Origin: an uncultured bacterium
Lineage (GTDB): Bacteria > Patescibacteriota > Minisyncoccia > Phycocordibacterales > GWA1-40-21
Assembly: GCA_963716205.1 (NCBI GenBank)
Contig: OY970290.1
Span: forward strand, 452,911-516,910
Reading direction: 5' to 3'
DNA length: 64,000 nt
Part shown: piece after piece, positions 11,733-64,000 of the stretch
How positions within the stretch are numbered: the stretch's first letter is position 1
Layout: each line of letters begins with the position of its first letter
The notes under the pieces: generated by a model
Databases searched by the model: none
Seen by the model: the letters and a program-made list of their open reading frames with translations, nothing else
Told to the model about the DNA's origin: nothing
Translations under genes and position numbers: made by a program

Positions 11733-12059
11733 TTATTTCTTTTTTGTGCTTGTCGCTGCCGTGCTTGTACTTGCAAGCGTACTTGTCGCAGTGCTTGATG
11801 CAATTTCTGATCTGATAAAAGCGGTTGTGCTCGCAAGCTGCGCCGATGCTAAATGAAACTCGTTTGCAATATCGGAAAACATTCCGGAAAAAGAGCTGAA
11901 CAGATTCGGCTTGTATGTCGACTCGTCTTTTGCATTGTAGGTCGTATCGAACCAATACCATACTCCGACAATAATCAGCGTTAAAATAATTGCGGTAAAA
12001 ACAGCAAAATTCCGTTTCTTTTTCTCCGGCCAGTTTCGTATGTTCGTTATCCAGCTCAT
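11733..12059 (-). CDS. hypothetical small membrane protein with Ser/Thr-rich C-terminus
   Basis: 108 aa. One TM (FAVFTAIILTLIIVGVWYWF). The C-terminal tail is STATSTLASTSTAATSTKKK. Confidence 0.45.
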   Translation of the reverse strand: MSWITNIRNWPEKKKRNFAVFTAIILTLIIVGVWYWFDTTYNAKDESTYKPNLFSSFSGMFSDIANEFHLASAQLASTTAFIRSEIASSTATSTLASTSTAATSTKKK

Positions 12060-12191
12060 TTTTTCAAAATAATTATATCAGATTTTGGAAATAATGATGA
12101 GAAAAATAATTCTTGACTTATGAAATAAATGATGGTAATTTGAAGTTCGAGCAGTTCGTTGCAAAATACAAATTACTTGGGGGTGAGAATC

Positions 12192-40160: not shown

Positions 40161-43100
40161 TTATTGCCCTTCTGATGAGGTTGCCGAGGAATCAGTCGTT
40201 GTTGCTTGAGATGAATCATCCGGAGTCGTAGTTGCTGTTGTTATTTGGATATCAGAGGTGGAACTTGCGGTGCTTGTTGCCGTTCCATCAGAAGTCGAAG
40301 TGGCTGTCGAAACAATATCAGTTGTCGTTGCTTGAGATGAATCATCCGGAGTCGTAGTTGCTGTTTCGGAATCAGGCGTCGAAGTTGCAGTGCTTGTTGC
40401 GATTTCCGTTCCTGAATTATCCGGCGCACTCGAGCTTGCTGCCTCTGCCGGAGACGTCGCTGCTGGAAGTGTGTAGTCCGAAGGATAACCAAACGTTTTT
40501 GCATTATTGACTGCAAGAGCAATCCAACTGAAGGTTGTGTCATCAATAGCGGGTTTGTTAAGCATGATCGTAAATCCTGCCGTTGATTTTTTCATAATGA
40601 CATATTGAATATTGTTGTTGAAGATATCTCCGACGGTAGCGGTATCAGCGGCGGGATTGCTCGAAGTATCAAACGTAATGTTTGCACTTACGATTGGATC
40701 TGTAAGATACGGATTGGTGAATGTCACATCAACTGATTGCTGGCCCTTGGCAATAACCGCGAAGCCAGCGGTGTCATTATTGAAGTATGGCCTACCAAAG
40801 AATATTGTGTCTGATTCAAGAGTAATGGCGTCATTCAAAGAACTTATATTATCCACTGTCAAACCTTGCGTTGTTATGCTTGGTGCAATAATTTCAATTC
40901 CGGCGGCAAGGCGATCAACCAAAAGTTCAGATGTCGTATCCGTCGCTTCAGGACCGGTTCCTTGATTTGCCAGGAATTTCGCCAGCACCTGTCTTCCTAT
41001 TGTTTCAGTATTTCCAACATCTTCGATGCCGGCAAATTCACTCAAACTTTCTCCGCTGTAATATCCTTGTTCAACAAAAACCATCACTTGGCTCTGCCCC
41101 GAATTTGGACTCCAGTTGCCGAGTGCTTTGCCAATAACCTCACCCGCTTTTGTGGCTTTCATTGCTTTTCCGGGATCATCAGAAGTCGTCAAATAATCTC
41201 CTGGTTGTATCGGATCCGAACTTGATGAAACATTGACCATAATACGACCATTAAGTGCGATTGGCATTATTTTATCTTCCCCACTCATTGCATTATATCC
41301 AGCGGAAGTAAATTGACCATAGTTGTCGGAAACAACACCGATCACATTTGATGCATATGTCGTGGTAGCTTGAACAAGTTCGGTAATTTCCTGCGGTGAA
41401 TCTGTTGAAACATTTCCTTCCGCATCAGTTCCATATTGTTCAACAGTTGTTGTGCCAAGCACCATAACATCACCATAATCCGTCGACTGTTCAACTGGAT
41501 ACATTTCAGCATAATCAGAAGTTGGCGCACCGCTACAAGTGACAAGTTGATACGCAGTTCCTGATACCGGAGCTTGTGATCCCGTAAGAGTAGCTACGCA
41601 AACACCTTTGATTCTTGCGGCTGTTGACGTACCAAGTGAAACCGCGACTCCTACTGATGTAGTACCAACGCCACCAGCAATAATTGAAACTGTCGTTGTA
41701 CCGGAACTCGAATTTTTTACGCCAATATTAATCGCTGTAACACCGGTGCCACCATTTGCAGTCGTTCCAATATTGATCGTTTGGTTATTATTACCACTTG
41801 CACCAGTACCTATGTTAATAATTTGACCTCCGGTAGATGAGCCAAGTGTAATAGCACCTGTCCCTGTAGTGGAACCGATGACGATTGTGCCATTTGTATT
41901 TGGAGTCATCGTAATTCCACCTGTGCCAGTACCACCATAAATTGTAGTATTTCCTGTTAATGACGTACTGCCAATTTGTATAGCGCCGCTTGTAACATTG
42001 CTGAACAAAAGGTTTGTGGGAGACGTACCGCCATATATGGTTACTACTCCGGTTGCCGCTACTCCGCCAAGAGTCAATGTTCCTGTACCGGTTACAGCAA
42101 AAGTTGAAGCGCCATTACCCGCATTAATATTAACTTTGGTTGCACCCGTAATGTTACCGATGGTAACAGTTCCAGCTATTGCTCCTGTTCCAATATTGAT
42201 GATATTTCCGGTTGCACCTTGAGTACCAATATTTACAGTATTGATTCCTCCGATTCCAACTCCGAGGTTCAAAGTTTCCGCACCTGTCGATGAACCGACA
42301 GTGATAGCACCTGTCTGCCCAGTTCCGCCTATTGTATATGTACCTGATGTTAAAGCCGCGCCATCAGTTATCGAACCTGTTGTTATACCAGTACCTATCG
42401 TTATGGTTGAACCAGCGGCACCTTGTAATAAATAATTTCCTGTCCCCACTGTTTCTGTTATTCCTGTTGCACCGACATTATTTCCAATAGCAATGACATT
42501 ACCGCCAGTACTACCATTGGCAATATTTACTGCCGCATTATTAGAACCGGTATTTATATTTGCTGCAAAATTTGAAGAAACATTCAAATTGACTGCTGCA
42601 CCCGTAGAAGTCAAACCTGCAACAAAAGTTCCCAAATTATTCCACGTTTTAGCTCCATTCACCGATTGAGTTGTTGTAAGGTCAACAAAGTTTTGGGAAC
42701 TTGAACCTGTTCCGCCGTTGGTAATTGGCAAAATGCCCGCGGTAGAAGGCAAGTTGGTTAAGAGTGACCAACTTGGTGTTCCCGCAGCAGTGTTCATTAA
42801 AACCATACCTGTTGTGACACCGGCAGCCAATCTCGCGGGAGCAGGTGTTGAATTTTCATAAATCATATCTCCCACAGTAGTCATAGGATTTGTAAGTTTC
42901 CCATTAAACGTCGTCCAATCAGCGCTTGCCAGACATCCGCTTACAGATCCCGATGCCTGCGGACAGTTAATCGTGAGTGATGATGAAGTTGTTGAAATAT
43001 TAAATGATGTACCGGATGTTCCGACTGCTGTTGTGAATGGTCCCGTATATCCTGCTGCCACTGATGCTGTCAGTGTTCCTGAATTTGTCACCGGTGAATT

Positions 43101-46100
43101 CGTTACAGTATATCCTGTCGGTAGAGAAAGACCGACGGAGGTGACATACGCCAGTGATGTCGAGGCCGAGGATAACAAAAATTGAGAAGTTGATGTGGAA
43201 ATTACATTTCCATTTGGGTCAACTGCCAAAAATGCATTTGAAAGTTTTGAGATGTTCAAATTTTGAGTAGTGGAAGTCCCGATGACTGAAAGTGCAGTTA
43301 CCGGAGTTGTTGTGCCGATGCCGACATTGCCATTCGGTAATATATTGAATCCGACTGTAGAGGTAGAATTAAAAGAAACAAATGGAGACGTCAGTGAGCC
43401 ATTTAACGCAGTATAAGAAATACTTGATGTAGCCAATAAGAAATCAGCTGGATTTGAAGAAAATACATTTCGCATTGCGGAAACGCTTTGAGTTCGTAAA
43501 ACGGTAACGCTATCAAGCTGAGAGATAGGAGTTTGAATCGGAACGGGTGCAGTCCAGGAAGCAAAATTATTGTATGAATCGCTGTAGTGAATAAATGACG
43601 TATTGCCGTATTCATCAAGATAAATTCTCCAATCATTGGCGCTGACCTGTACAAGTGCCGGGGCTTCATAGTTATTCGCTCCCCATCCTGCCCAGTTGCC
43701 GCTTTCCGCAGTGACAAACGGTCCTGTCGGTGAAGAAGAAGTGGCATATTCAATATATTTCGGAGCGGTTTCCTCTTTGTACCAGAGATAATATGTGCTA
43801 CCAATCTTGACCATAAATGGGTCAATCTTGTTTGCTCCAATAACATAAACTGGATTCGACCATGTGGTCATGGCGGCATTTGTCGGGTGCATTTCGTAAA
43901 CACTGAAGGTATTATCGGAACCGTCCGGAGCAATTGAAACATAGGCATGAACAGTTCCGTCCGTATCGACAAAAAGTGACGGTGCCCATGTCCAATAGAC
44001 TGTGGTTGTCGCTGCCGTCGTGGAAGGATTTGTCACATAGCTCCAATTCCTCAGATCAGATGAAGAAGCAAGACCCCACCATTGATTTGAACCAAAGCCA
44101 GAATATGATGGAAAGTTATTATAACTCATCCAATAGACATTATTGTAATAAATAATTGACGGATCTCGGAAACTTCCGGATGGTGGGATATACGGCGGAT
44201 TGGGTTCAAAATCAAAGAAATTAATACCATCAGCACTTGATTCAATCTCCATAGTTTGTGCTGAGAAATTATGCCCGACAAGGATATATACTCCTTGACC
44301 CGCAACAGCAGGATTACCGACCGATGCATCACCCAGCGTGTTCGTGTTTCCACCAAAATATGCAATAGTTGTAGTAGCTGAAGTCAATCCCGCAACAGAA
44401 AATTCAGAGTTTGGAGTACTTGTCCCGACACCAACATTGCCATTGGTAAGAACTGTAAGGAGAGGCGATGTTGTTGAATAAATATTGAGTAGTGGTTGCG
44501 TTTGAGCATATGTTGAAGTCGCTTCAATAGCCAGTTCTGCAGACGGAGTTGTCGACCCGATTCCAATATAACCATTTGAAAAAACTTTAAAATATGAACT
44601 TCCATTTATTCCGTAAATTTCAAGAGGATTTCCTAAAGATGAACTTGCTTGAATATCAACGGCATCATCAGGCGTAGTTGTTCCGATTCCAACACTTCCA
44701 TTTGAAAGAATTATCATTCTTGTATCTGAAGCCAATGTTCCTCCGGTAAAGAATTTCAGAGCGGCTTGTGAATTTGTACTCGTAGCTGTGCCAATATCTA
44801 ATGAATTATCAGAAGCATACACATAAGCATCGTCTGATGTTGCTATGGTAAATGTCTGATCAGCGTTATATCCGTTATTAATACCCAAATCTACATAATT
44901 TGAATTATCATTTCCATTGTTTGCTGTTGCAATATAATCCGCAGAAGATGTCGGAGAGTTTGAAGAATTTTCCAATACCATTTCAACAGATGCGGACGAA
45001 CTGCCTATCACAGCAAACGGAACTACATTACCGTCTCCTAAAACATTCCAGTTTGTTGTCGTGCCAATGGCAATTGATGAACTTGCGGGAAATTCATATA
45101 GAACTGAATTAGTCAAAGTTCCGCTTGATGTTGCATACGAAATATATCCGGTCGTAAAAGGTGATGTTGTGCCAAGTCCCCCACTGCTTGTTCCGCCTGA
45201 TATTCCGAGCGATGATGTCGAAACATATGCAACACCTCCGATTGCTGTTGATGATGCTACGAGAACATATCCATTCGTTCCCGTTGCAATGCTACCAAGT
45301 CCCGATCCTGAAGACCAATATGCCAAATCTCCTGATGTTCCGGAAAGAGCATTTTGTTTCCCATTAAACGTCGTCCAATCAGCGCTTGCCAGACATCCGC
45401 TTACAGATCCCGATGCCTGCGGACAGTTAATCGTGAGTGATGATGAAGTTGTTGAAATATTAAATGATGTACCGGATGTTCCGACTGCTGTTGTGAATGG
45501 TCCCGTATATCCTGCTGCCACTGATGCTGTCAGTGTTCCTGAATTTTTCACCGGTGAATTCGTTACAGTATATCCTGTCGGTAGAGAAAGACCGACGGAG
45601 GTGACATACGCCAGTGATGTCGAGGCCGAGGATAACAAAAATTGAGAAGTTGATGTGGAAATTACATTTCCATTTGGGTCAACTGCCAAAAATGCATTTG
45701 AAAGATTGGAAATGTTTAATCCTTTCGTGGTTGAAGTACCGATGACGGAGAGTGCTGTTGCTGGAGTGGTGGTGCCAATACCAACTGCATATGATGCTAA
45801 TAATTCTCCTCCATAACCAGCGTTTCCGAGTGAGTATCCTATACCAATACCATTATTAAATGTGAAATTGCCCCAGCCATCTGAAGATATTGTTCCTTGT
45901 TGTGTATTGTCAGTTCTTGTTGAACTTATCAGTGTTGTTGAAGCATTCGCTGAAAAATTAAGAAGTCCGTTAGAATAAACTTGATTACCTGGAGCTCCAA
46001 TACCAACATTTCCATTGAAGAATGCGACTGTTCCAGTTGGTGCAGTAACAGAACCAACGGAAAGTGTGGAAACATTTGAAAGCGATTTATTATTGAGATT

Positions 46101-49100
46101 CACTCCGCCAGTCGCACCGGAATACGGAACATAGAGTGATGAGCTGGCAAACGGAATGTATGCAAGCGATGTCGAGGCCGAGAGCGGAAGGTAGGTGGAG
46201 GCGGCTGTTGCCGTCGTCAGGTAATTGGTGATGGTTGAGGTTGAGACGTAGTTGGCGGCGGCCGATGTCGTTGAGAGATATCCAAGCAGCGTGTTGGCAA
46301 ATGATGAAGTTGAGACGTAGTTGGTCAGTGATGAGGTGGTGGCCGTGATGTAATTGGAAGGATTGGAGTTGAGGTAATACAAACTTGAGGATGCAAACGG
46401 AATGTATGCAAGCGATGTCGAGGCCGAGAGCGGAAGGTAGGTGGAGGCGGCTGTTGCCGTCGTCAGGTAATTGGTGATGGTTGAGGTTGAGACGTAGTTG
46501 GCGGCGGCCGATGTCGTTGAGAGATATCCAAGCAGCGTGTTGGCAAATGATGAAGTTGAGACGTAGTTGGTCAGTGATGAGGTGGTGGCCGTGATGTAAT
46601 TGGAAGGATTGGAGTTGAGGTAATACAAACTTGAGGATGCAAACGGAATGTATGCAAGCGATGTCGAGGCCGAGAGCGGAAGGTAGGTGGAGGCGGCTGT
46701 TGCCGTCGTCAGGTAATTGGTGATGGTTGAGGTTGAGACGTAGTTGGCGGCGGCCGATGTCGTTGAGAGATATCCAAGCAGCGTGTTGGCAAATGATGAA
46801 GTTGAGACGTAGTTGGTCAGTGATGAGGTGGTGGCCGTGATGTAATTGGAAGGATTGGAGTTGAGGTAATACAAACTTGAGGATGCAAACGGAATGTATG
46901 CAAGCGATGTCGAGGCCGAGAGCGGAAGGTAGGTGGAGGCGGCTGTTGCCGTCGTCAGGTAATTGGTGATGGTTGAGGTTGAGACGTAGTTGGCGGCGGC
47001 CGATGTCGTTGAGAGATATCCAAGCAGCGTGTTGGCAAATGATGAAGTTGAGACGTAGTTGGTCAGTGATGAGGTGGTGGCCGTGATGTAATTGGAAGGA
47101 TTGGAGTTGAGGTAATACAAACTTGAGGATGCAAACGGAATGTATGCAAGCGATGTCGAGGCCGAGAGCGGAAGGTAGGTGGAGGCGGCTGTTGCCGTCG
47201 TCAGGTAATTGGTGATGGTTGAGGTTGAGACGTAGTTGGCGGCGGCCGATGTCGTTGAGAGATATCCAAGCAGCGTGTTGGCAAATGATGAAGTTGAGAC
47301 GTAGTTGGTCAGTGATGAGGTGGTGGCCGTGATGTAATTGGAAGGATTGGAGTTGAGGTAATACAAACTTGAGGATGCAAACGGAATGTATGCAAGCGAT
47401 GTCGAGGCCGAGAGCGGAAGGTAGGTGGAGGCGGCTGTTGCCGTCGTCAGGTAATTGGTGATGGTTGAGGTTGAGACGTAGTTGGCGGCGGCCGATGTCG
47501 TTGAGAGATATCCAAGCAGCGTGTTGGCAAATGATGAAGTTGAGACGTAGTTGGTCAGTGATGAGGTGGTGGCCGTGATGTAATTGGAAGGATTGGAGTT
47601 GAGGTAATACAAACTTGAGGATGCAAACGGAATGTATGCAAGCGATGTCGAGGCCGAGAGCGGAAGGTAGGTGGAGGCGGCTGTTGCCGTCGTCAGGTAA
47701 TTGGTGATGGTTGAGGTTGAGACGTAGTTGGCGGCGGCCGATGTCGTTGAGAGATATCCAAGCAGCGTGTTGGCAAATGATGAAGTTGAGACGTAGTTGG
47801 TCAGTGATGAGGTGGTGGCCGTGATGTAATTGGAAGGATTGGAGTTGAGGTAATACAAACTTGAGGATGCAAACGGAATGTATGCAAGCGATGTCGAGGC
47901 CGAGAGCGGAAGGTAGGTGGAGGCGGCTGTTGCCGTCGTCAGGTAATTGGTGATGGTTGAGGTTGAGACGTAGTTGGCGGCGGCCGATGTCGTTGAGAGA
48001 TATCCAAGCAGCGTGTTGGCAAATGATGAAGTTGAGACGTAGTTGGTCAGTGATGAGGTGGTGGCCGTGATGTAATTGGAAGGATTGGAGTTGAGGTAAT
48101 ACAAACTTGAGGATGCAAACGGAATGTATGCAAGCGATGTCGAGGCCGAGAGCGGAAGGTAGGTGGAGGCGGCTGTTGCCGTCGTCAGGTAATTGGTGAT
48201 GGTTGAGGTTGAGACGTAGTTGGCGGCGGCCGATGTCGTTGAGAGATATCCAAGCAGCGTGTTGGCAAATGATGAAGTTGAGACGTAGTTGGTCAGTGAT
48301 GAGGTGGTGGCCGTGATGTAATTGGAAGGATTGGAGTTGAGGTAATACAAACTTGAGGATGCAAACGGAATGTATGCAAGCGATGTCGAGGCCGAGAGCG
48401 GAAGGTAGGTGGAGGCGGCTGTTGCCGTCGTCAGGTAATTGGTGATGGTTGAGGTTGAGACGTAGTTGGCGGCGGCCGATGTCGTTGAGAGATATCCAAG
48501 CAGCGTGTTGGCAAATGATGAAGTTGAGACGTAGTTGGTCAGTGATGAGGTGGTGGCCGTGATGTAATTGGAAGGATTGGAGTTGAGGTAATACAAACTT
48601 GAGGATGCAAACGGAATGTATGCAAGCGATGTCGAGGCCGAGAGCGGAAGGTAGGTGGAGGCGGCTGTTGCCGTCGTCAGGTAATTGGTGATGGTTGAGG
48701 TTGAGACGTAGTTGGCGGCGGCCGATGTCGTTGAGAGATATCCAAGCAGCGTGTTGGCAAATGATGAAGTTGAGACGTAGTTGGTCAGTGATGAGGTGGT
48801 GGCCGTGATGTAATTGGAAGGATTGGAGTTGAGGTAATACAAACTTGAGGATGCAAACGGAATGTATGCAAGCGATGTCGAGGCCGAGAGCGGAAGGTAG
48901 GTGGAGGCGGCTGTTGCCGTCGTCAGGTAATTGGTGATGGTTGAGGTTGAGACGTAGTTGGCGGCGGCCGATGTCGTTGAGAGATATCCAAGCAGCGTGT
49001 TGGCAAATGATGAAGTTGAGACGTAGTTGGTCAGTGATGAGGTGGTGGCCGTGATGTAATTGGAAGGATTGGAGTTGAGGTAATACAAACTTGAGGATGC

Positions 49101-50498
49101 AAACGGAATGTATGCAAGCGATGTCGAGGCCGAGAGCGGAAGGTAGGTGGAGGCGGCTGTTGCCGTCGTCAGGTAATTGGTGATGGTTGAGGTTGAGACG
49201 TAGTTGGCGGCGGCCGATGTCGTTGAGAGATATCCAAGCAGCGTGTTGGCAAATGATGAAGTTGAGACGTAGTTGGTCAGTGATGAGGTGGTGGCCGTGA
49301 TGTAATTGGAAGGATTGGAGTTGAGGTAATACAAACTTGAGGATGCAAACGGAATGTATGCAAGCGATGTCGAGGCCGAGAGCGGAAGGTAGGTGGAGGC
49401 GGCTGTTGCCGTCGTCAGGTAATTGGTGATGGTTGAGGTTGAGACGTAGTTGGCGGCGGCCGATGTCGTTGAGAGATATCCAAGCAGCGTGTTGGCAAAT
49501 GATGAAGTTGAGACGTAGTTGGTCAGTGATGAGGTGGTGGCCGTGATGTAATTGGAAGGATTGGAGTTGAGGTAATACAAACTTGAGGATGCAAACGGAA
49601 TGTATGCAAGCGATGTCGAGGCCGAGAGCGGAAGGTAGGTGGAGGCGGCTGTTGCCGTCGTCAGGTAATTGGTGATGGTTGAGGTTGAGACGTAGTTGGC
49701 GGCGGCCGATGTCGTTGAGAGATATCCAAGCAGCGTGTTGGCAAATGATGAAGTTGAGACGTAGTTGGTCAGTGATGAGGTGGTGGCCGTGATGTAATTG
49801 GAAGGATTGGAGTTGAGGTAATACAAACTTGAGGATGCAAACGGAATGTATGCAAGCGATGTCGAGGCCGAGAGCGGAAGGTAGGTATTCAAAAGATTCT
49901 GCAAATCTGTTTGATTAGAAAGTGTTCCAGTAATTGCACCCCATGCAACAGTTGCACTTGAACTTGAAGCAAACGCCCAATCATAACCTGTAGGCGACGT
50001 CGATGATGCTTCCAAAAATTGTCCGGGGGTACCAGTTGCTATCGATGCAAGTGATCCTGTGTTCGTCCAATATGAAAGTCTTCCACTCGTTCCCCCACCA
50101 ATAAGAAATTGGGATGATGATGCAACAGGAATGTATGCAAGCGAAGTGGAAGCCGAGAGTGGTAGATATATTGCCGCCGCAGAAGTTGTAGAAAGGATAC
50201 TATTGATAAAATTATCGGAAATTTTCAAACCGGAAGATGATTTTGACAATGTTGAACCATCGAGAATCAGAGAAAAAGTTGAACTGGATAAATTGAGACC
50301 TTCACCATCGGTAGTATAAGGAACAACATCGCAATTCAAATCTGTTGGCAAACAATTTGGATTTAAGGTAGCTCCTGGAGCATAAAGATCGGCAAAAGTA
50401 GTATTCGAACAAAACAAACCCGACAAGAGAAAAAAGACAAATAAATTTATTTTTATAATAAAAAGAATATTCTTTTTTTTAGCAATAGCAACTCTCAT
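40161..50498 (-). CDS. giant secreted/surface repeat protein (3445 aa) with 80-aa tandem repeats, tail-fiber-like repeats, GH43-like beta-propeller and acidic Ser/Thr-rich C-terminal tail
   Basis: Signal peptide or TM at the N-terminus. About 16 identical 80-aa repeats (LPLSASTSLAYIPFASSSLYYLNSNPSNY...). Recurrent NGNVGIGTTTP-type motifs. A central domain (DPSIIYYNNVYWMSY...GSTYYLWYKEE) is typical of five-bladed beta-propeller glycoside hydrolases and lectins. Gly/Thr-rich beta-helix-like region. C-terminal ATSTATSTPD... tail. Confidence 0.75.
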   Translation of the reverse strand: MRVAIAKKKNILFIIKINLFVFFLLSGLFCSNTTFADLYAPGATLNPNCLPTDLNCDVVPYTTDGEGLNLSSSTFSLILDGSTLSKSSSGLKISDNFINSILSTTSAAAIYLPLSASTSLAYIPVASSSQFLIGGGTSGRLSYWTNTGSLASIATGTPGQFLEASSTSPTGYDWAFASSSSATVAWGAITGTLSNQTDLQNLLNTYLPLSASTSLAYIPFASSSLYYLNSNPSNYITATTSSLTNYVSTSSFANTLLGYLSTTSAAANYVSTSTITNYLTTATAASTYLPLSASTSLAYIPFASSSLYYLNSNPSNYITATTSSLTNYVSTSSFANTLLGYLSTTSAAANYVSTSTITNYLTTATAASTYLPLSASTSLAYIPFASSSLYYLNSNPSNYITATTSSLTNYVSTSSFANTLLGYLSTTSAAANYVSTSTITNYLTTATAASTYLPLSASTSLAYIPFASSSLYYLNSNPSNYITATTSSLTNYVSTSSFANTLLGYLSTTSAAANYVSTSTITNYLTTATAASTYLPLSASTSLAYIPFASSSLYYLNSNPSNYITATTSSLTNYVSTSSFANTLLGYLSTTSAAANYVSTSTITNYLTTATAASTYLPLSASTSLAYIPFASSSLYYLNSNPSNYITATTSSLTNYVSTSSFANTLLGYLSTTSAAANYVSTSTITNYLTTATAASTYLPLSASTSLAYIPFASSSLYYLNSNPSNYITATTSSLTNYVSTSSFANTLLGYLSTTSAAANYVSTSTITNYLTTATAASTYLPLSASTSLAYIPFASSSLYYLNSNPSNYITATTSSLTNYVSTSSFANTLLGYLSTTSAAANYVSTSTITNYLTTATAASTYLPLSASTSLAYIPFASSSLYYLNSNPSNYITATTSSLTNYVSTSSFANTLLGYLSTTSAAANYVSTSTITNYLTTATAASTYLPLSASTSLAYIPFASSSLYYLNSNPSNYITATTSSLTNYVSTSSFANTLLGYLSTTSAAANYVSTSTITNYLTTATAASTYLPLSASTSLAYIPFASSSLYYLNSNPSNYITATTSSLTNYVSTSSFANTLLGYLSTTSAAANYVSTSTITNYLTTATAASTYLPLSASTSLAYIPFASSSLYYLNSNPSNYITATTSSLTNYVSTSSFANTLLGYLSTTSAAANYVSTSTITNYLTTATAASTYLPLSASTSLAYIPFASSSLYYLNSNPSNYITATTSSLTNYVSTSSFANTLLGYLSTTSAAANYVSTSTITNYLTTATAASTYLPLSASTSLAYIPFASSSLYYLNSNPSNYITATTSSLTNYVSTSSFANTLLGYLSTTSAAANYVSTSTITNYLTTATAASTYLPLSASTSLAYIPFASSSLYYLNSNPSNYITATTSSLTNYVSTSSFANTLLGYLSTTSAAANYVSTSTITNYLTTATAASTYLPLSASTSLAYIPFASSSLYVPYSGATGGVNLNNKSLSNVSTLSVGSVTAPTGTVAFFNGNVGIGAPGNQVYSNGLLNFSANASTTLISSTRTDNTQQGTISSDGWGNFTFNNGIGIGYSLGNAGYGGELLASYAVGIGTTTPATALSVIGTSTTKGLNISNLSNAFLAVDPNGNVISTSTSQFLLSSASTSLAYVTSVGLSLPTGYTVTNSPVKNSGTLTASVAAGYTGPFTTAVGTSGTSFNISTTSSSLTINCPQASGSVSGCLASADWTTFNGKQNALSGTSGDLAYWSSGSGLGSIATGTNGYVLVASSTAIGGVAYVSTSSLGISGGTSSGGLGTTSPFTTGYISYATSSGTLTNSVLYEFPASSSIAIGTTTNWNVLGDGNVVPFAVIGSSSASVEMVLENSSNSPTSSADYIATANNGNDNSNYVDLGINNGYNADQTFTIATSDDAYVYASDNSLDIGTATSTNSQAALKFFTGGTLASDTRMIILSNGSVGIGTTTPDDAVDIQASSSLGNPLEIYGINGSSYFKVFSNGYIGIGSTTPSAELAIEATSTYAQTQPLLNIYSTTSPLLTVLTNGNVGVGTSTPNSEFSVAGLTSATTTIAYFGGNTNTLGDASVGNPAVAGQGVYILVGHNFSAQTMEIESSADGINFFDFEPNPPYIPPSGSFRDPSIIYYNNVYWMSYNNFPSYSGFGSNQWWGLASSSDLRNWSYVTNPSTTAATTTVYWTWAPSLFVDTDGTVHAYVSIAPDGSDNTFSVYEMHPTNAAMTTWSNPVYVIGANKIDPFMVKIGSTYYLWYKEETAPKYIEYATSSSPTGPFVTAESGNWAGWGANNYEAPALVQVSANDWRIYLDEYGNTSFIHYSDSYNNFASWTAPVPIQTPISQLDSVTVLRTQSVSAMRNVFSSNPADFLLATSSISYTALNGSLTSPFVSFNSTSTVGFNILPNGNVGIGTTTPVTALSVIGTSTTQNLNISKLSNAFLAVDPNGNVISTSTSQFLLSSASTSLAYVTSVGLSLPTGYTVTNSPVTNSGTLTASVAAGYTGPFTTAVGTSGTSFNISTTSSSLTINCPQASGSVSGCLASADWTTFNGKLTNPMTTVGDMIYENSTPAPARLAAGVTTGMVLMNTAAGTPSWSLLTNLPSTAGILPITNGGTGSSSQNFVDLTTTQSVNGAKTWNNLGTFVAGLTSTGAAVNLNVSSNFAANINTGSNNAAVNIANGSTGGNVIAIGNNVGATGITETVGTGNYLLQGAAGSTITIGTGITTGSITDGAALTSGTYTIGGTGQTGAITVGSSTGAETLNLGVGIGGINTVNIGTQGATGNIINIGTGAIAGTVTIGNITGATKVNINAGNGASTFAVTGTGTLTLGGVAATGVVTIYGGTSPTNLLFSNVTSGAIQIGSTSLTGNTTIYGGTGTGGITMTPNTNGTIVIGSTTGTGAITLGSSTGGQIINIGTGASGNNNQTINIGTTANGGTGVTAINIGVKNSSSGTTTVSIIAGGVGTTSVGVAVSLGTSTAARIKGVCVATLTGSQAPVSGTAYQLVTCSGAPTSDYAEMYPVEQSTDYGDVMVLGTTTVEQYGTDAEGNVSTDSPQEITELVQATTTYASNVIGVVSDNYGQFTSAGYNAMSGEDKIMPIALNGRIMVNVSSSSDPIQPGDYLTTSDDPGKAMKATKAGEVIGKALGNWSPNSGQSQVMVFVEQGYYSGESLSEFAGIEDVGNTETIGRQVLAKFLANQGTGPEATDTTSELLVDRLAAGIEIIAPSITTQGLTVDNISSLNDAITLESDTIFFGRPYFNNDTAGFAVIAKGQQSVDVTFTNPYLTDPIVSANITFDTSSNPAADTATVGDIFNNNIQYVIMKKSTAGFTIMLNKPAIDDTTFSWIALAVNNAKTFGYPSDYTLPAATSPAEAASSSAPDNSGTEIATSTATSTPDSETATTTPDDSSQATTTDIVSTATSTSDGTATSTASSTSDIQITTATTTPDDSSQATTTDSSATSSEGQ
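42901..43245 (-). repeat. intragenic near-identical duplication, copy A (about 345 bp)
   Basis: Identical to 45361..45705 except for one mismatch (GTC vs TTC at 43087/45547). Flanking sequence is homologous but diverged. Confidence 0.8.
45361..45705 (-). repeat. intragenic near-identical duplication, copy B
   Basis: See copy A. The two copies encode the duplicated protein segment ...INCPQASGSVSGCLASADWTTFNGK..., flanking the beta-propeller domain. Confidence 0.8.
46120..49888 (-). repeat. tandem array of about 16 copies of a 240-bp unit with essentially perfect nucleotide identity (in-frame, 80 aa each)
   Basis: The unit beginning CAAACGGAATGTATGCAAGCGATGTCGAGGCCGAGAGCGGAAGGTAGGTGGAGG recurs at an exact 240-nt period (for example 46149, 46389, 46629...). 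By eye the copies are identical and only the first and last are diverged. Confidence 0.85.
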
Positions 50499-56110: not shown

Positions 56111-56156
56111 ACCGCCTCATAGTAGCAGAAAAACGGGAAAAATAAATGGCGGAAAA

Positions 56157-57961: not shown

Positions 57962-57962
57962 A

Positions 57963-59420
57963 TCATTGATTGTCTATTTTTATAATCGGCAAAAGTTTGT
58001 CTTCTTCGATTTTGGCTGCTGTATTTTCATGTATTTCTTCTTTAACAGGAATTTCTGTCTGACTCATGTTTATTGCTTCAAGATTTTTCAGATACTGATC
58101 CTTAATTTCTTTTTGCTTTGCTTGTAAGCTTTCTTCGCTTGCCAGTTCCTCCAGAGCCTCGATTTTTTCCACTTCCTGCTCCTCCGTTTTTTTGCGCATT
58201 TCCTCATTTTTTGCATCTTTGAAAATTCTTTTTAGGCGTGCAATGATTTTGTGCCCGAAAAGATAGTGTCCGATTAAAAGGAGGAGGAGGAGAATGATAA
58301 TCCAATTTTGTTTGAGAAAATTAATCCATGTTACCGGCGGGGCGACGGTGATCGTTTCATCTCTGACATTTCCCGCACGATCAAAAGCACGCACGGTCAC
58401 CCGCAGAGTATCAAGCGGTTTGAGAGCAAGTGCATACGGACTGTCTGATTGGACAAAAACCGGAGAACTGTTGGGAGATTTGCTGATATCGACAACGCCA
58501 ACTTCATAATGATCGATTCCGGAAAGATCATCTGTGGTAAAAAAAGAAACGAGTGCCTGCGTATTGTTTGATGCCGTCACTATTGCGACCTGTGGAGTGA
58601 ACGCTGCCGGAGGTGCAGTATCGATGCGTATGACAAAATTCGTTGTCCCTCCCCAGATGCCGTCTTTTTGTGCCTTGATATGAAAATACCAAATTCCGTC
58701 GGTCAGGTTTGGATATGAAATGACCGTATCTGTCGCATCAATGACATTATCCGGAACGGTGAACGGCTTGTCATCGAGCGTAAAACTAAAACCGCTCACC
58801 CCATCGTCTCTGTTCCATGCCAGAACAGGAGAATTATTGTTATACCAGGTATCTTGAAACGGATGGGTTTCGGAAAAAACCTGCGGACCTTCCGGCGCTT
58901 GCGGCAAAATTGTATAGGTTCCGCGCCCGACTTCAAGCTCCACTGCTGTTCCCTGCCCGTCGTTCGCCAAAATACGCGATGCATCTGAAATGGTAACATT
59001 CGCTTGTCCGGTTGTGAGCGCGCGGAATGTCATCGTCGTAATCAAACCGCTTTCGGTCGTGATGCCGTTTGGAATAACACCGGAAAGTTCCAGGGTTCCA
59101 TTGGTATTTGAATACGTCGGCGGATCAACCCAGATGCCGATAATGGAATTGCTGTCTGACGGATTGACGAGAGCAAGCTTTGTCGGATCAAAATTCACTG
59201 AAAGAGAAACTGTATTGATGCTTTGTCCTTCAGTATTTACAAAAACGGGTATTTCAATTGTTGAGCCACTGATAATCGTGGCGGTTGCAGGCGAAAGAAA
59301 AAGATCCGCTTTTTGAAGCAGTTCGCCCGCATTCACATTTACATAGGATGACTGCTGGGCAAAAGCAAAACACGGGATGAGAAATAAAAGAAAAAATATT
59401 TTTTTATATAATTTAAGCAT
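57963..59420 (-). CDS. membrane-anchored cohesin-like domain protein with Ig-like domains and cytoplasmic coiled-coil tail
   Basis: Signal peptide, cohesin-like module (...VSLSVNFDPTKLALVNPSDSNSIIGIWVDPPTYSNTNGTLELSGVIPNGITTESG...), two beta-rich domains, a TM and a Glu/Lys-rich tail. Confidence 0.55.
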   Translation of the reverse strand: MLKLYKKIFFLLFLIPCFAFAQQSSYVNVNAGELLQKADLFLSPATATIISGSTIEIPVFVNTEGQSINTVSLSVNFDPTKLALVNPSDSNSIIGIWVDPPTYSNTNGTLELSGVIPNGITTESGLITTMTFRALTTGQANVTISDASRILANDGQGTAVELEVGRGTYTILPQAPEGPQVFSETHPFQDTWYNNNSPVLAWNRDDGVSGFSFTLDDKPFTVPDNVIDATDTVISYPNLTDGIWYFHIKAQKDGIWGGTTNFVIRIDTAPPAAFTPQVAIVTASNNTQALVSFFTTDDLSGIDHYEVGVVDISKSPNSSPVFVQSDSPYALALKPLDTLRVTVRAFDRAGNVRDETITVAPPVTWINFLKQNWIIILLLLLLIGHYLFGHKIIARLKRIFKDAKNEEMRKKTEEQEVEKIEALEELASEESLQAKQKEIKDQYLKNLEAINMSQTEIPVKEEIHENTAAKIEEDKLLPIIKIDNQ

Positions 59421-59435
59421 TGGGTTTATTTTATT

Positions 59436-60902
59436 TTATCCCGTCCAATAATACGCCATGATGGAAAAATCCGTCAGGGTAATCTGTCCCGTACCGGCAA
59501 GTTCCGCTTTATCTATCGCCAAAAATGCAGCACTCAAAGGTCTATGATACCAGTATGCGGCAATGGAAAAGTCGACCAGATTCACTTTGCAGTCTCCGTT
59601 CAAATCTCCTTTGGGAGGGCATGCGCTTTGCGAAGCGAGAACCGTCTTGTCGCCGACAAGAAAACTGACAACGCTCGAAAATGGGCTGATAAGGCTCGAT
59701 GTCGCCGCTTTGGATTTTGTCGTATGCTCGGCAAGAGCAAGCGGGCTGGTATCGAAATCATACAGATAAATTCCATTTTTGTCGGATGGCGTCTGTTCAA
59801 AAAATTCCTGCGCCGAGTTCACGGAAATTGTTATATTCGCATCAGGAATACTCTGTCCAAAAATCGAAATATTGTCCCCTTGTTTCACTTCGCTTTTATC
59901 AACGGCGATCGTCGGCGCGAGAAAAATACTTCCGATATTTGTCGTGACACCGGAAGTTATAAAAATGGGAAAAGTGAACGCACTTGAATGCCTGCCGGAG
60001 CTATCCTCTCCAAAAACAGAAAAAGTATAATTTCCGGAAGCAAGATTACTAATCGAAACGCTGAAATTCGCATCGGGGTCGGCAATCGTGGTCACCGCAA
60101 GCTGACCGTCTTCAAGTATTCCGACTGTCGAAAGCGGATATGCTCTGCCGGAAAAATTCACACCGGTCGAAGAAACTGCTGGTGCCGGACTGCTTCCGCC
60201 GCCACCGCCGCCACCCCCTCCACCACCGCTTTGCGAATAAATACATGGAAGCGGTCTGTTGAAATTAATAGCATTGTGATCGGTACAAATAAGCGGAGCC
60301 GGATATGTACACGGAAGTGGTCCGCCATAGTTTGTGGCGGATGGATCCGTACATGTTGTCGGAGCCGAGCTGACAGGTGTCGCGGAAACTTCACCACTCG
60401 TGACAATGACATTGCCAAGCGCATCAAGTGCCTGCACGACAAAGTAATACGTCGTGCCGTTTGCGAGCGAGGTCACGGTTTTTGTTGTTACATTTCCAAC
60501 TGATGTAAATGTGTAGGGACCGCCCGAAACCGTTGAAACGCCGATATTGTATCCGCCGACCGTCCAGCCGAGTGAACTGTTTGCATTTGTCCATGAAACG
60601 ACGACCTGACTGTCGCCGGGAATCGTGGAAATAATCGGCGAAGAAACAATTGAATAATATTGAAAGCCGAGACTAGCTTCAAAGTTTGCCGCAGTCGAAG
60701 GACCGGTTGCTATTTGTCCGAGCGAACCCTGCAATTCATAATTTGCCGACTGCGAATATCCCCCGCCGAGATCCATAACCGGATTGAGGATCGTATAATT
60801 TCCAGAACTGAATTCTTGCGCGTGAATCATGCTGAAAAAATATAAAAAAAATGCGAAACCGAAAAAATATGCTATGTATTTTTGTATAGTTCGCATATTC
60901 AT
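59436..60902 (-). CDS. secreted FN3/Ig-like protein with C-terminal dockerin domain
   Basis: The likely start is MNMRT... at 60902, one nt after the upstream giant gene's stop. Signal peptide. FN3-like domain (VVSWTNANSS...TYYFVVQALD). Poly-Gly linker. Dockerin segments KGDLNGDCKVNLVDFSIAAYWY and GQITLTDFSIMAYYW. Confidence 0.65.
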   Translation of the reverse strand: MNMRTIQKYIAYFFGFAFFLYFFSMIHAQEFSSGNYTILNPVMDLGGGYSQSANYELQGSLGQIATGPSTAANFEASLGFQYYSIVSSPIISTIPGDSQVVVSWTNANSSLGWTVGGYNIGVSTVSGGPYTFTSVGNVTTKTVTSLANGTTYYFVVQALDALGNVIVTSGEVSATPVSSAPTTCTDPSATNYGGPLPCTYPAPLICTDHNAINFNRPLPCIYSQSGGGGGGGGGGGSSPAPAVSSTGVNFSGRAYPLSTVGILEDGQLAVTTIADPDANFSVSISNLASGNYTFSVFGEDSSGRHSSAFTFPIFITSGVTTNIGSIFLAPTIAVDKSEVKQGDNISIFGQSIPDANITISVNSAQEFFEQTPSDKNGIYLYDFDTSPLALAEHTTKSKAATSSLISPFSSVVSFLVGDKTVLASQSACPPKGDLNGDCKVNLVDFSIAAYWYHRPLSAAFLAIDKAELAGTGQITLTDFSIMAYYWTG

Positions 60903-60903
60903 T

Positions 60904-63900
60904 TTATTGACCTGTTGAACTTGCATCTGTCGATGTCGAAAGATCGCCCGAAGTATCCGTAGTATCGGTGCTTGAAGCCGAATCATCGGGAATTATCTCG
61001 GGTGTCGAGGTTGCTATGATATCCGGAGTTGAAGTTGCTGTCGATGTTGCAACTGTTTCGTCTGTTGTCGAAGCTGTGGATGTCGCAAAAGTATCGTCAG
61101 TCATTGTTGCGTCTGATGAACTTGCCGAACTTTCCGATGAGGAATCTCCGCCGGCACTTCCGACAGAAGCTGTATCTGTGATGTCACTCGTTGACGTTGC
61201 GGTTCCGCAGGCCCCTGCAGAATTTGTCCATACGCCATTGTTTATAAATACGCAATACGGCTGCCCTGTCGCATGATCATACATCGTAATACCAGAGCTT
61301 GATGGTGCAGCCTGTGTTCCAACCGTCAGCTGCTCTACAAAAATATCTGCAAGATGCGCTATACCATTCGCCAGATTGTTGATGAATGTTTCAATCGTAC
61401 CAATAAATCCCTGCTGCACCTGAATAGCTTTGACGAGGTATGGAGCGAAACGATCATAGTCGAGACCATAGCAGTCGCTTTGATTTACATCGCCGGGAAC
61501 GCAGTCATTTGGATTGGAAGGCATGACAACGACATCGGTAAGTCCTGCTGCCGCCACTTGCTGGGCAATGAAACCGACTTGTTCTGCCTGGGAAGAACTG
61601 GTGGCGATCCAATTGTAGGTCACGGGATTAAGAGCTAATACTTCATCGAGTGTTGAAGTGCCGAGGGTAGTGATATTTGTTTTCAGGCGCTCGTCGGATG
61701 CCGATGTCCATGAGGTGCCGCCGTTTGTCATATAAACACCGGCATTGCCTTGATCAAAGACATCAAACGTATTGCTCGCGGCATCACCGATATACCAATA
61801 GTCTCCGGCTGCACCGGCGGTATCGATCATTTGAATTTGTCCCGTTGAAGATGCGGCGACCGTGAGCGCATATGCCGGACTCGTCGTTCCGATTCCAGTA
61901 TTTCCGCTTGCCAATACAGTAAAAACTGCGCTTGATGATGAAGCAACTGTAAATAATGGACTTGTATTTGTGGTCGAGCTTGCTTGAACATAAAGAATTG
62001 ATGTTGGTGTAGAAGTATTCAGTCCCATCAAACCAGTCGGTGTATCTAAAAACTGATACACGCTTGTTTGAGTATTATACATTGCAAAATTTGAATTATA
62101 CATTTCAAAAGTAGCGTATCTTTGCCAGTTGGAAGAATTTCCAAAATAAATAGTTGGATTCACTCCGGTTGGTCCACCACCTATGGTAAGTCCAAACCCT
62201 GCTGGAATATTAGTTGGGTTTTCATTAATAGCGACGGCACCGCCATCAAGCCATGAAGTTCCTGAAGCAGAAATTTTATTAATATAGGCATTCGTAACTG
62301 TCGGCACCGTTCCATTCGTAGCTCCCGATGTTGTGGCAAAAACAAATGTCGTGGTTGTAGTGGAAAAATATGCCAATTCATTTCCTGCAGTCGTGGTGGA
62401 GAAATAAATATTGTAGGAAGCTGCTCCGGTAACTGCTGCTATCGTCAGAGTAATCGAGCCAGTTGTGCCCGTTGTTGTGGTAGTGACTTCAGCAGAGGGA
62501 GTCGTCGTTCCTATTCCGTCTGACGCGGAAACTTTGAACCAATATGTACCTGACGTCAAATTTCCACCCGTAGTTGATGAAGCTATCGCCGGTGTTGCGG
62601 GAGTTGCCATGCTGGTGACAAAGGTATCACCTGAAGTGAGAGTGAGAGCATTTTGTGGATTACTCGTCCCAATCCCAACATTTCCATTTGCTAACACAGT
62701 CAAATATGTCGCGCCTGTGGAAGTCGCCACGGTCAATAACGGCGCGGTATTTGAGCTTGAAGTCGCTTGAATATACACAAAACCTAATGCGGATTGTGCC
62801 GTTGTTGAACCGACAGTCAGAGTTCCTGTCGGAATAAGAACATTTCCGGTATCGGCGGCAACGACAAATCTCTGTGCGCCTCCTTTTGAATCATAGAGTT
62901 GCCATGTGTTTCCTGCATTGCCGTAATAATACCAGAGGCCATTCCCAATTCTCAAATAATTTGAAGAATTCATGCTTATTGTCGGGTTTGTTCCCGATAG
63001 CGTGATACCGTTGTTATTCGTTCCGGCAATGTTTAATATGTCTATTGGATTTGATGTCCCTATTCCCACATCTCCCCCATCAAACCAAGAATTGCTCGAT
63101 GATGCTATTTTGTCCGCATACGCATTCGTAACGGTTGGTACGCCTGAAGGTAAATTCGTAGCTCCTGATGTTGTGGCAAAAACAAATGTCGTGGTTGTAG
63201 TGGAAAAATATGCCAATTCATTTCCTGCAGTCGTGGTGGAGAAATAAATATTGTAGGAAGCTGCTCCGGTAACTGCTGCTATCGTCAGAGTAATCGAGCC
63301 AGTTGTGCCCGTTGTTGTGGCAGTGACTTCAGCAGAGGGAGTCGTAGAACCAATTCCGTCTGACGCGGAAACTTTGAACCAATATGTACCTGCAGAAAGC
63401 GTTCCGCCGATTGTTGATGAGGCGATGGTGGGAATAGCTGGAGTTGAGATTGGAACATCAAGATTTCCAGCTATAAGCGTTGAAAAATTGTTAAGTGCAT
63501 TTCCAGTAACCTGTAAAACCCCGGCCGTGTATCGTGCAAGTCCGACATCGGCATTTCCAAAGTTGGCACTAGCACCCCACCCGATACTTTGCGAAGCTCC
63601 AAAAGAAAGAGAACCTAGAACGCTTCCTGTTGTGGCACTAAGACTTACTCTTGCCGAACCATTTGTTTCAAGAGTAAGACCTTCCGAGCCGAGAGGGCTG
63701 TTGATGGTTAATATGCCAGTTGCAGAATTTACGAGAAGTAATGGTGATGTTGAAGTTCCAACGGAAAGGTTGCCCCAGACAGTGAGGAGTGAAGTTGGAG
63801 TTGAAGTTCCTATTCCAACATATCCAATATTTCCGCTTCCCAGAATTGTCATGGCATCTGTGCCACCATCTGGAAAAGTTCCAGAAGTTCCACCGACAAG

Positions 63901-64000
63901 AAATTCAATTCCTTTTGCATTACCGCCCTCTATTGAAACGGCATTGTCTGTTCCATTGTAACCGAACAATGCTCTGCCACCGCCCATTTCAAGACCCGCT
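60904..64000 (-). CDS. giant surface protein, C-terminal part (N-terminus beyond window): FN3-like repeats, Peptidase_S74 intramolecular chaperone domain, acidic Ser/Thr-rich tail
   Basis: Duplicated FN3-like modules (GTYWFKVSASDGIG.TTPSAEVT). NGNVGIGTSNP-type motifs. IMC/S74 signature SDERLKTNI...LDEVLALNPVTYNW...VGFIAQQV. C-terminal ...VATSTATSTPDII...STGQ tail shared with the 3445-aa protein. Confidence 0.7.
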   Translation of the reverse strand, partial: AGLEMGGGRALFGYNGTDNAVSIEGGNAKGIEFLVGGTSGTFPDGGTDAMTILGSGNIGYVGIGTSTPTSLLTVWGNLSVGTSTSPLLLVNSATGILTINSPLGSEGLTLETNGSARVSLSATTGSVLGSLSFGASQSIGWGASANFGNADVGLARYTAGVLQVTGNALNNFSTLIAGNLDVPISTPAIPTIASSTIGGTLSAGTYWFKVSASDGIGSTTPSAEVTATTTGTTGSITLTIAAVTGAASYNIYFSTTTAGNELAYFSTTTTTFVFATTSGATNLPSGVPTVTNAYADKIASSSNSWFDGGDVGIGTSNPIDILNIAGTNNNGITLSGTNPTISMNSSNYLRIGNGLWYYYGNAGNTWQLYDSKGGAQRFVVAADTGNVLIPTGTLTVGSTTAQSALGFVYIQATSSSNTAPLLTVATSTGATYLTVLANGNVGIGTSNPQNALTLTSGDTFVTSMATPATPAIASSTTGGNLTSGTYWFKVSASDGIGTTTPSAEVTTTTTGTTGSITLTIAAVTGAASYNIYFSTTTAGNELAYFSTTTTTFVFATTSGATNGTVPTVTNAYINKISASGTSWLDGGAVAINENPTNIPAGFGLTIGGGPTGVNPTIYFGNSSNWQRYATFEMYNSNFAMYNTQTSVYQFLDTPTGLMGLNTSTPTSILYVQASSTTNTSPLFTVASSSSAVFTVLASGNTGIGTTSPAYALTVAASSTGQIQMIDTAGAAGDYWYIGDAASNTFDVFDQGNAGVYMTNGGTSWTSASDERLKTNITTLGTSTLDEVLALNPVTYNWIATSSSQAEQVGFIAQQVAAAGLTDVVVMPSNPNDCVPGDVNQSDCYGLDYDRFAPYLVKAIQVQQGFIGTIETFINNLANGIAHLADIFVEQLTVGTQAAPSSSGITMYDHATGQPYCVFINNGVWTNSAGACGTATSTSDITDTASVGSAGGDSSSESSASSSDATMTDDTFATSTASTTDETVATSTATSTPDIIATSTPEIIPDDSASSTDTTDTSGDLSTSTDASSTGQ
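62311..62560 (-). repeat. intragenic near-identical duplication (copy 1, about 250 bp, FN3-like module)
   Basis: Near-identical to 63151..63400 (for example GTGGCAAAAACAAATGTCGTGGTTGTAGTGGAAAAATATGCCAATTCATTTCCTGCAG...), with a few mismatches. Confidence 0.75.
63151..63400 (-). repeat. intragenic near-identical duplication (copy 2)
   Basis: See copy 1. Confidence 0.75.

Follow-up and report, generated by a model that had tools for sequence, protein, structure and literature searches.

What is a self-cleaving chaperone domain of the kind found in phage tail fibers doing in a giant protein encoded on a bacterial chromosome? The question is raised by a stretch of 64,000 nucleotides (nt) from an uncultured bacterium of the Patescibacteriota (contig OY970290.1, positions 452,911 to 516,910; hereafter, the window), which ends within the gene for one very large protein, giant protein 2, and contains the gene for another, giant protein 1. 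Patescibacteria account for a large share of bacterial diversity, and the cultivated ones live attached to other cells, the molecules that make the contact being largely unknown. With moderate confidence, we read the end of the window as encoding the C-terminal 42% of a 2452-residue Sec-exported surface fiber protein of a patescibacterium (Paceibacteria-like), which would trimerize and cut itself by means of a Peptidase_S74, or intramolecular chaperone autoprocessing (ICA), domain. The parts of the gene that bear most directly on this reading are as follows.

60904..64000, minus strand: 3' part of the giant protein 2 gene, with the stop codon at 60904-60906 and the 5' part beyond the window.
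61348..61698, minus strand: Peptidase_S74/ICA domain including the long C-terminal helix (fragment residues 768-884; Pfam core at 61528-61698).
61696..61698, minus strand: codon of Ser768 (full-length Ser2189), the predicted nucleophile and first residue of SDERLK; the scissile bond would lie directly N-terminal to it, as in the family (PMC3742443).
61681..61683, minus strand: codon of Lys773 (full-length Lys2194), predicted from its conservation and +5 spacing to act as general base in the dyad with Ser768.
~61430-61490, minus strand: insertion of about 15 residues with two Cys inside the S74 domain (fragment residues ~838-856), absent from all aligned homologs and modeled by AF2 with lower confidence.

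Translated from the minus strand, the frame of giant protein 2 is open from 60904 to the edge of the window at 63999, and the window therefore covers only the C-terminal 1031 residues of a larger protein. The original prediction had pointed beyond the window for the N terminus, and the full length was recovered as protein P0026, the top match of a profile search with the two-Cys module that lies downstream of the S74 domain. P0026 has 2452 residues, the last 1031 of which are identical to the window fragment with zero mismatches, and giant protein 2 is therefore 2452 residues long. In full-length numbering, Ser768 and Lys773 of the fragment become Ser2189 and Lys2194, and the S74 domain (residues 768 to 884) becomes 2189 to 2305. 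The N terminus of P0026, MLLFFVSFSYAFA/ASG (with the slash at the apparent cleavage site), resembles a signal peptide in its hydrophobic core and cleavage site, and the called start may be slightly truncated. As judged from the translation, the body of the protein consists of Ser/Thr-rich repeats, GNVGIGTTxP stalk segments and two beta-sandwich modules, with S74 near the C terminus. An exact-DNA scan of JGI metagenomes using the window end found no match, and the only match in the GTDB representative genomes was a 40%-identical protein of Ca. Buchananbacteria.

The translation contains all three motifs on which the original prediction of an S74 domain was based (SDERLKTNI…LDEVLALNPVTYNW…VGFIAQQV), and the Pfam search that it proposed bears the assignment out. 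PF13884 (Peptidase_S74) is the sole Pfam-A match in the fragment, spanning residues 768 to 824 and profile positions 1 to 57 of 58, and scores 51.6 bits where the gathering threshold is 22 (E = 1.1e-13); full-length P0026 gives the same match at residues 2189 to 2245. Across alignments of 21 to 22 homologous S74 domains, the SDxRxK Ser and Lys never vary, nor do the Gly and Ala of GFIAQ. In a wider set of 118 domains, Ser and Lys are each 95% conserved. The lack of a significant profile match, or a dyad not conserved in homologs, had been named as grounds for abandoning the assignment, and neither was found. In endosialidases and in MYRF (S578/K583, spacing +5), this Ser-Lys pair is the catalytic dyad, with an oxyanion-stabilizing Arg assisting (PMC3742443). 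The Arg at +3 is present in the SDERLK of giant protein 2, completing SDxRxK, and at the level of sequence the protein displays every feature by which membership in the S74/ICA family was judged.

Relatives of the fragment are distant. A database search returned 25 at E ≤ 1e-5, the best sharing 31% identity over just 21% of its length; 19 of the 25 have a precomputed PF13884 match, and the source names include "tail fiber domain-containing protein." NCBIfam yielded no match for either giant protein. Because a single-sequence search of the PDB with the last 331 residues of giant protein 2 returned no match, a profile was needed, and the profile of the S74 domain matched a putative tail fiber (8jov, 1e-18), a long tail fiber (6f45, 3e-18), MYRF (7dc3, 2.7e-11), phage T5 pb1 (8hqz, 6.8e-10) and the GA-1 neck appendage (3gud, 1.8e-5). 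An AF2 monomer model of fragment residues 700 to 940 predicts the S74/ICA fold with its terminal long helix, which in this family forms the trimeric coiled coil. Block-mean pLDDT is 86 to 95 over most of the domain, falling to 67 at the insertion, and a 37-residue helix occupies model residues 149 to 185. The top Foldseek match of the model was the ICA domain of MyRF (7dc3; probability of 1.00, TM of 0.68 normalized to the target), followed by endoNF (3gw6) and then GA-1 (3gud).

Contrary to the earlier claim, giant protein 2 does not end in the S74 domain. About 147 residues follow the long helix, and they fall into two parts.

61201..61389, minus strand: conserved two-Cys module with Cys916 and Cys931 (fragment residues 871-933; homolog alignment A4).
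60907..61200, minus strand: acidic, Ser/Thr-rich low-complexity tail with four copies of A[TS][ST]T[PED] (fragment residues 934-1031, about 99 residues).

The two-Cys module, of about 60 residues (…GIAHLADIFVEQLTVG…SGITMYDHATGQPYCVFINNGVWTNSAGACG), is predicted to fold as a small sheet of three strands (AF2 strands at model residues 204 to 229, pLDDT of ~77 to 87), and no Pfam-A or NCBIfam model matches the region. Searched against 1.84 billion cluster representatives, its profile retrieves 2079 with E ≤ 1e-3, of which 609 have E ≤ 1e-10. In the best 150 of the 2079, the module sits near the C terminus of proteins that reach 7453 residues, and the tail that follows it varies from 0 to 326 residues with a median of 112. 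In 151 modules, neither Cys varies (100% conservation). The order of S74 domain, two-Cys module and low-complexity tail is repeated in many homologs, and S74 lies just upstream of the module in 109 of 134 nonfragment proteins. The named proteins come from metagenome-assembled genomes of Patescibacteria, Parcubacteria or Paceibacterota, with few others (Bacteroides sp., Burkholderiales). With 2079 representatives and no Pfam-A or NCBIfam model, the module could be defined as a new domain family.

A degenerate DNA pattern for GIT[LMIF]YDxxTGxPYC was run on JGI metagenome contigs and IMG/VR. At least 120 matches were found in the JGI metagenome contigs and 0 in IMG/VR, and the module thus appears cellular rather than viral. 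Several of the matched contigs are named Hain-H41/H43-01um, a name that we read as referring to 0.1-µm filter fractions of Hainich groundwater. In metagenome loci, S74 is replaced upstream of the two-Cys module by a different domain, here called G2-like and described below for giant protein 1. Among 119 module open reading frames (ORFs) from about 120 independently sampled loci, 89 have an S74 and/or a G2-like domain upstream: 37 pair S74 with the two-Cys module, 40 pair the G2-like domain with it, and 12 are mixed or double, the remaining 30 having the module alone. Whichever chaperone type lies upstream, the two-Cys module is the hallmark of the C-terminal fragment.

The tails of the two giant proteins had been described as similar, and this holds for their composition and not for their alignment. 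A composition scan of the ORFs in the window found only giant proteins 1 and 2 to end in such tails.

40164-40463, minus strand: acidic Ser/Thr tail of giant protein 1, from the translation.

In the last 80 residues, Ser and Thr make up 56% of giant protein 1 and 53% of giant protein 2, and Asp and Glu 14% and 19%, respectively, with no Lys or Arg in either. ATSTATSTPD is found in both. Beyond this, the two tails show no alignable homology in BLASTP with composition adjustment (E = 20), and blastn yields only 21-nt matches between them, and true homology of the tails, or recent gene conversion between the giants, was rejected on both the protein and the DNA comparison. What recurs is a short motif: A[TS][ST]T[PED] occurs five times in the tail of giant protein 1 and four times in that of giant protein 2 and is absent from the bodies of both proteins, and in 0 of 2000 composition-preserving shuffles of either tail was the observed count reached. 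Across the family, it is about 10-fold enriched in tails (0.69 per 100 residues versus 0.065), and 69 of 147 tails hold at least one copy. Low complexity and a short motif are what the tails have in common throughout the family, and nothing in them shows the sorting or glycosylation signal that had been suggested.

No transmembrane segment and no LPXTG motif occur in the tails of giant proteins 1 and 2. In six to seven homologs, a hydrophobic helix and basic residues follow the Ser/Thr tail; in P0022, P0038, P0044, P0051, P0052, P0154 and P0157, the tail after the S74 domain and two-Cys module ends in …LGATVFGA… before the helix and basic residues. In these seven bacterial homologs, the layout predicted from sequence resembles that of MYRF, the ICA domain being followed on its C-terminal side by a membrane anchor. 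Six of the 151 family members were scored as transmembrane-anchored. Elsewhere in the window, a candidate gene for a 114-residue protein (positions 11733-12077, minus strand) has a Ser/Thr/Ala-rich end (…SSTATSTLASTSTAATSTKKK) that resembles the giant tails, except that its end is basic.

Upstream of the S74 domain, the window fragment is built from stalk motifs and a duplicated module.

61876..61905, minus strand: last GNxGIGTTxP stalk motif before S74 (regex scan).
62005-62034, 62656-62685, 63046-63075 and 63796-63825, minus strand: further GNxGIGTTxP copies (regex scan).
62314..62606, minus strand: duplicated beta-sandwich module, copy 2 (C-proximal), of the 293-nt direct repeat.
63154..63446, minus strand: duplicated beta-sandwich module, copy 1 (N-proximal), of the 293-nt direct repeat.

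The GNxGIGTTxP motif precedes S74 in nearly all homologs, and within the window the GNVGIGTTxP segments are the only significant similarity of giant protein 2 to giant protein 1 (E = 3e-7). The sole direct-repeat family consists of two copies of 293 nt, 91% identical and 840 nt apart, which encode a module of about 95 residues between GNVGIGT stalk motifs that is kept in six homologs (P0002-P0005, P0010 and P0019). The duplication, originally put at about 250 bp of FN3-like sequence, is thus real and somewhat longer; a beta-sandwich fits the module, so that "Ig/FN3-like beta-sandwich" is a fair description of it, and membership in FN3 itself is unproven.

The other giant protein of the window carries a different domain in its C-terminal part.

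40161..50498, minus strand: giant protein 1, 3445 residues, with a signal peptide; paralog of giant protein 2 (translation).
~41019-41555, minus strand: G2-like chaperone domain of giant protein 1 (residues ~2982-3160), with predicted cleavage before Asp2994 (codon 41517-41519).

Giant protein 1 has a clear signal peptide. Residues 254 to 707 of P0026 align to residues 1088 to 1620 of giant protein 1 with 55% identity (E = 2e-119), and by this alignment the two giants are paralogs. The paralogous region shares a repeat of about 80 residues (YLPLSASTSLAYIPFASSSLYYLNSNPSNYITATT…). Giant protein 2 has two to three diverged copies, outside the window, and giant protein 1 has 15.2 tandem copies of 246 nt with 100% matches and no indels (window positions 46147-49886), in a segment that also stands out in its composition (GC of 0.51, GC skew of +0.48). 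The perfect identity of these copies suggests a very recent expansion, ongoing homogenization or assembly collapse.

The G2-like domain is recognized by the signature D-x-A-E-x-Y … GD[VI]V … LG[VI][VI]S … GRVPVKV … GDY[IL]T.S…G.AMKA…G.V[IV]G.ALE, which residues 2982 to 3160 of giant protein 1 carry as APTS/DYAEMYP…GDVMVL…NGRIMVNV…GDYLTTS…GKAMKATKAGEVIGKALG (the slash marking the predicted cleavage). The family profile (A5) matches phi29 gp12 6qz9 and 3gqh at E values of 0.0024 to 0.0027, within an overall marginal range of 0.0024 to 0.014, and also matches 3suc (gp12) and the "chaperon domain D4" of tailspike Dpo31 (28nb). The invariant Asp of the domain aligns to residue 1 of chain 3gqh (…TWS/DFAEYFE…), a chain that we take to be the released auto-chaperone fragment of gp12. 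PF11962 (Peptidase_G2) is matched by 4 of 15 family members (best E = 6.5e-4), and giant protein 1 itself reaches no Pfam threshold. Given the marginal E values and the position of giant protein 1 below the Pfam thresholds, the assignment is suggestive only: giant protein 1 may carry an autocleaving chaperone-like domain of the phi29 gp12/Peptidase_G2 type. The alternative that giant protein 1 is a divergent S74 protein was rejected, as it has no SDxRxK-like motif and no Pfam match and the S74 and G2-like profiles are unrelated (hhalign probability of 0.05%). The G2-like domain lends weak support to the earlier suggestion that both giants share a common processing; if the assignment is true, both would mature via phage-type autocleaving chaperones of different families.

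Two other regions of giant protein 1 merit mention. Its last globular domain (FGRPYFNNDTAGFA…FSWIALAV, window positions ~40470-40800) has no Pfam match and recurs after the two-Cys module in the homolog P0150, so that C-terminal modules appear to be shuffled among the giant proteins of the lineage. Residues ~2100 to 2200 (window positions ~43900-44200) give a weak Glyco_hydro_32N-like match below threshold (E = 0.0027), which suggests a beta-propeller glycosidase or lectin-like domain within the fiber.

The claim that giant protein 2 is a chromosomal gene of a bacterium is borne out by its surroundings, which are cellular, contain no phage genes nearby and belong to a Patescibacteria genome. 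The window holds a bacterial RNase P RNA (positions 4709-5060), eight dispersed tRNA genes, LepA and a PrsW protease. The LepA is identical to a database protein that lies with P0026 on one 681,747-bp contig, and the nearest named relatives of this LepA are from "Patescibacteria group bacterium" (86%) and "Candidatus Paceibacterota bacterium" (81 to 82%). The immediate neighbors also encode surface proteins.

59436..60902, minus strand: 488-residue secreted protein with fn3/Big_6 and a dockerin-like C terminus (GDLNGDCKVNLVDF…), beginning 1 nt after the giant 2 stop (Dockerin_1 E = 0.0029, subthreshold).
57963-59420 and 51911-52525, minus strand: cohesin-domain protein genes (Pfam).

The gene for the 488-residue protein is followed by that for a cohesin protein with a C-terminal transmembrane helix, two unannotated ORFs and lepA, and a tRNA-Gly gene is also among the neighbors. 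A cohesin-dockerin surface assembly may thus be encoded beside the giant fiber gene, and the locus is a surface-protein cluster, not a prophage. A 5.4-kb Logan contig from an independent sequencing run (L001, ERR11563597) is 99.96% identical to the window over positions 56075-61445 and differs by a 1-nt indel that frameshifts the 488-residue fn3/dockerin-like gene after …FSVFGED, reflecting strain variation or assembly error.

How such a protein might mature can be pictured by analogy with phage endosialidases, phage tail fibers and MYRF, from which we infer its export, trimerization, cleavage, the fate of its C-terminal fragment and a role in host-cell adhesion. Because Sec export runs from the N to the C terminus, the chaperone would emerge last. 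Three chains would then join via the ICA domain and its long helix, and their association would start the folding of the trimeric stalk upstream. Until the trimer has folded, the Ser2189-Lys2194 dyad, together with Arg2192, would not be in place to cut just before Ser2189; the cut would yield a mature fiber of about 2170 residues and a 264-residue C-terminal fragment composed of the ICA domain, the two-Cys module and the acidic Ser/Thr tail. This fragment could act as a removable assembly and tether module that holds the last-exported chain ends together at the cell surface until the fiber is folded, its conserved extension gathering the three C termini on the membrane or wall for as long as folding takes. 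The corresponding extension is predicted to be membrane-anchored in some relatives. The internal position of the domain is compatible with cleavage, since the ICA domain of MYRF is internal as well and cleaves via the same dyad (PMC3742443). On balance, a Sec-exported trimeric fiber that cuts itself at Ser2189 seems to us the most likely reading.

Several observations weigh against this account. The N terminus of P0026 is without a basic n-region, and the gene start may therefore be miscalled. The stalk just upstream of Ser768 has a pLDDT of <50 in the monomer model, so that a triple beta-helix could not be verified, and, in comparison with its homologs, the S74 domain is interrupted by an unusual stretch of some 15 extra residues that includes a Cys pair (PSNPNDCVPGDVNQSDCYG). 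The six to seven homologs that end in a transmembrane helix suggest an anchoring role that giant protein 2, which has no such helix, cannot share. Finally, an invariant two-Cys module is more than a disposable fragment would seem to require, and the C-terminal fragment may therefore serve a lasting function.

In a different view of the same cleavage, the 264-residue fragment would be a permanent cell-bound part, a wall-spanning stalk or anchor, and autocleavage would free the folded fiber or leave it attached noncovalently, much as in the tethering and release of MYRF. We regard this as unlikely, and as equally unlikely its corollary that the fiber is a shed or deployed product and not an anchored adhesin. 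The homologs with a type I anchor topology C-terminal to the ICA domain, as in MYRF (PMC3742443), speak for it, as does the Cys pair, whose invariance across 151 modules suggests that it does more than a disposable linker would. However, only 6 of the 151 family members were scored as transmembrane-anchored, and neither giant protein 1 nor giant protein 2 has a C-terminal transmembrane segment, LPXTG or other recognizable anchor. In phage endoNF, moreover, the cleaved chaperone simply dissociates, which also counts against a lasting tether. Cleavage might also be dispensed with altogether, the S74 domain serving only for trimerization and folding and being cut inefficiently or not at all; the whole 2452-residue chain would then be the mature form, with its tail as an O-glycosylated brush or spacer, in keeping with the glycosylation or sorting idea of the original prediction. 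The strong over-representation of A[TS][ST]T[PED] in both tails, and its roughly 10-fold enrichment in the family, would fit a modification sequon, and the atypical insertion in the S74 domain also speaks for this view. Yet an inactivated domain would be expected to lose its catalytic Ser, Lys and Arg, which are retained and strongly conserved, and the tails have no alignable signal; we consider this view very unlikely.

It is extremely improbable that giant protein 2 is the product of a phage or prophage tail-fiber gene, intact or recently decayed, instead of being a surface protein of the cell. The idea draws on the fact that S74 is best known from phage fibers, and there is a PHROG tail-fiber match; in tblastn searches, S74 regions about 30% identical occur in 132 INPHARED phage records. 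The PHROG match is limited to the S74 region, however, and the tblastn matches stop before the two-Cys module, which itself found nothing in 50,697 INPHARED phage records, in line with the absence of its DNA motif from IMG/VR as opposed to its at least 120 metagenome contigs. The gene has no flanking phage genes, its neighbors being cohesin- and Ig-domain surface proteins, LepA and tRNA-Gly, and it has a paralog 10 kb away on the same chromosome.

An adhesion role for giant protein 2 is plausible because transposon insertion sequencing (Tn-seq) of a cultured patescibacterium, Southlakia, points to surface proteins bearing dockerin, FN3 and lectin-like domains as essential for epibiotic growth (PMC10633639). 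If the reading as a self-cleaving trimeric fiber is true, widespread self-maturing giant secreted proteins become concrete candidates for attachment fibers, with a precise processing site before Ser2189. Of what is described here, the S74 domain is textbook knowledge, and relatives have been annotated automatically as "tail fiber domain-containing protein"; what is new is the nonterminal S74 architecture, the widespread and uncatalogued two-Cys module, and the pairing with a G2-like cassette in the paralog. Taking these together, we tentatively entertain a broader possibility: that Patescibacteria recruited two unrelated phage-type autocleaving chaperones, S74 and the phi29-gp12/G2-like type, as interchangeable maturation cassettes for giant trimeric surface fibers, each with a lineage-specific, invariant two-Cys module and an acidic Ser/Thr tail and sometimes membrane-anchored. 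If so, both cassette types would occur in one genome, in paralogous giants 10 kb apart, and would provide a removable platform on which fibers fold at the membrane and are then cut loose, a bacterial counterpart of MYRF processing.

Searches of the literature for S74 domains or intramolecular chaperones in connection with Patescibacteria or the candidate phyla radiation (CPR) returned nothing relevant, and no paper on this subfamily was found. The nearest systems are phage proteins, database entries and MYRF. Giant protein 2 shares with the phage CIMCD (MEROPS S74; endoNF of K1F, 3gw6; T5 pb1, 8hqz; GA-1, 3gud) the Pfam family, the SDxRxK dyad, the GFIAQ core, the long C-terminal helix and the predicted fold. 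Whereas the phage CIMCD forms the extreme C terminus of a virion protein, with nothing after the chaperone domain, and is discarded, the domain of giant protein 2 is chromosomally encoded and has about 147 further residues after it. Nor does its gene lie among structural genes, as would that of a phage tail fiber or tailspike. For giant protein 1, the corresponding phage system is the phi29 gp12 auto-chaperone (PF11962; 3gqh, 3suc and 6qz9), to whose S/DFAEYFE the invariant D-x-A-E aligns, at marginal E values.

Another set of relatives consists of the proteins that PGAP names "tail fiber domain-containing protein" in Ca. Paceibacterota, Patescibacteria and an unclassified "bacterium" (P0009, P0066 and P0170), which share the GNVGIGT stalk, the S74 domain, the two-Cys module and the tail, the closest homolog of the giant protein 2 fragment being only 31% identical over 21%. 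The last comparison is with the ICA domain of MYRF (7dc3). MYRF is a eukaryotic transcription factor of the endoplasmic reticulum membrane, whereas giant protein 2 is predicted to be extracellular and has no transmembrane helix or DNA-binding domain; in particular, fragment residues 885 to 1031 contain no hydrophobic segment that would correspond to the C-terminal transmembrane helix of MYRF. MYRF is nonetheless the best structural match, and in both proteins the ICA domain is internal and the residues of the dyad are spaced at +5.

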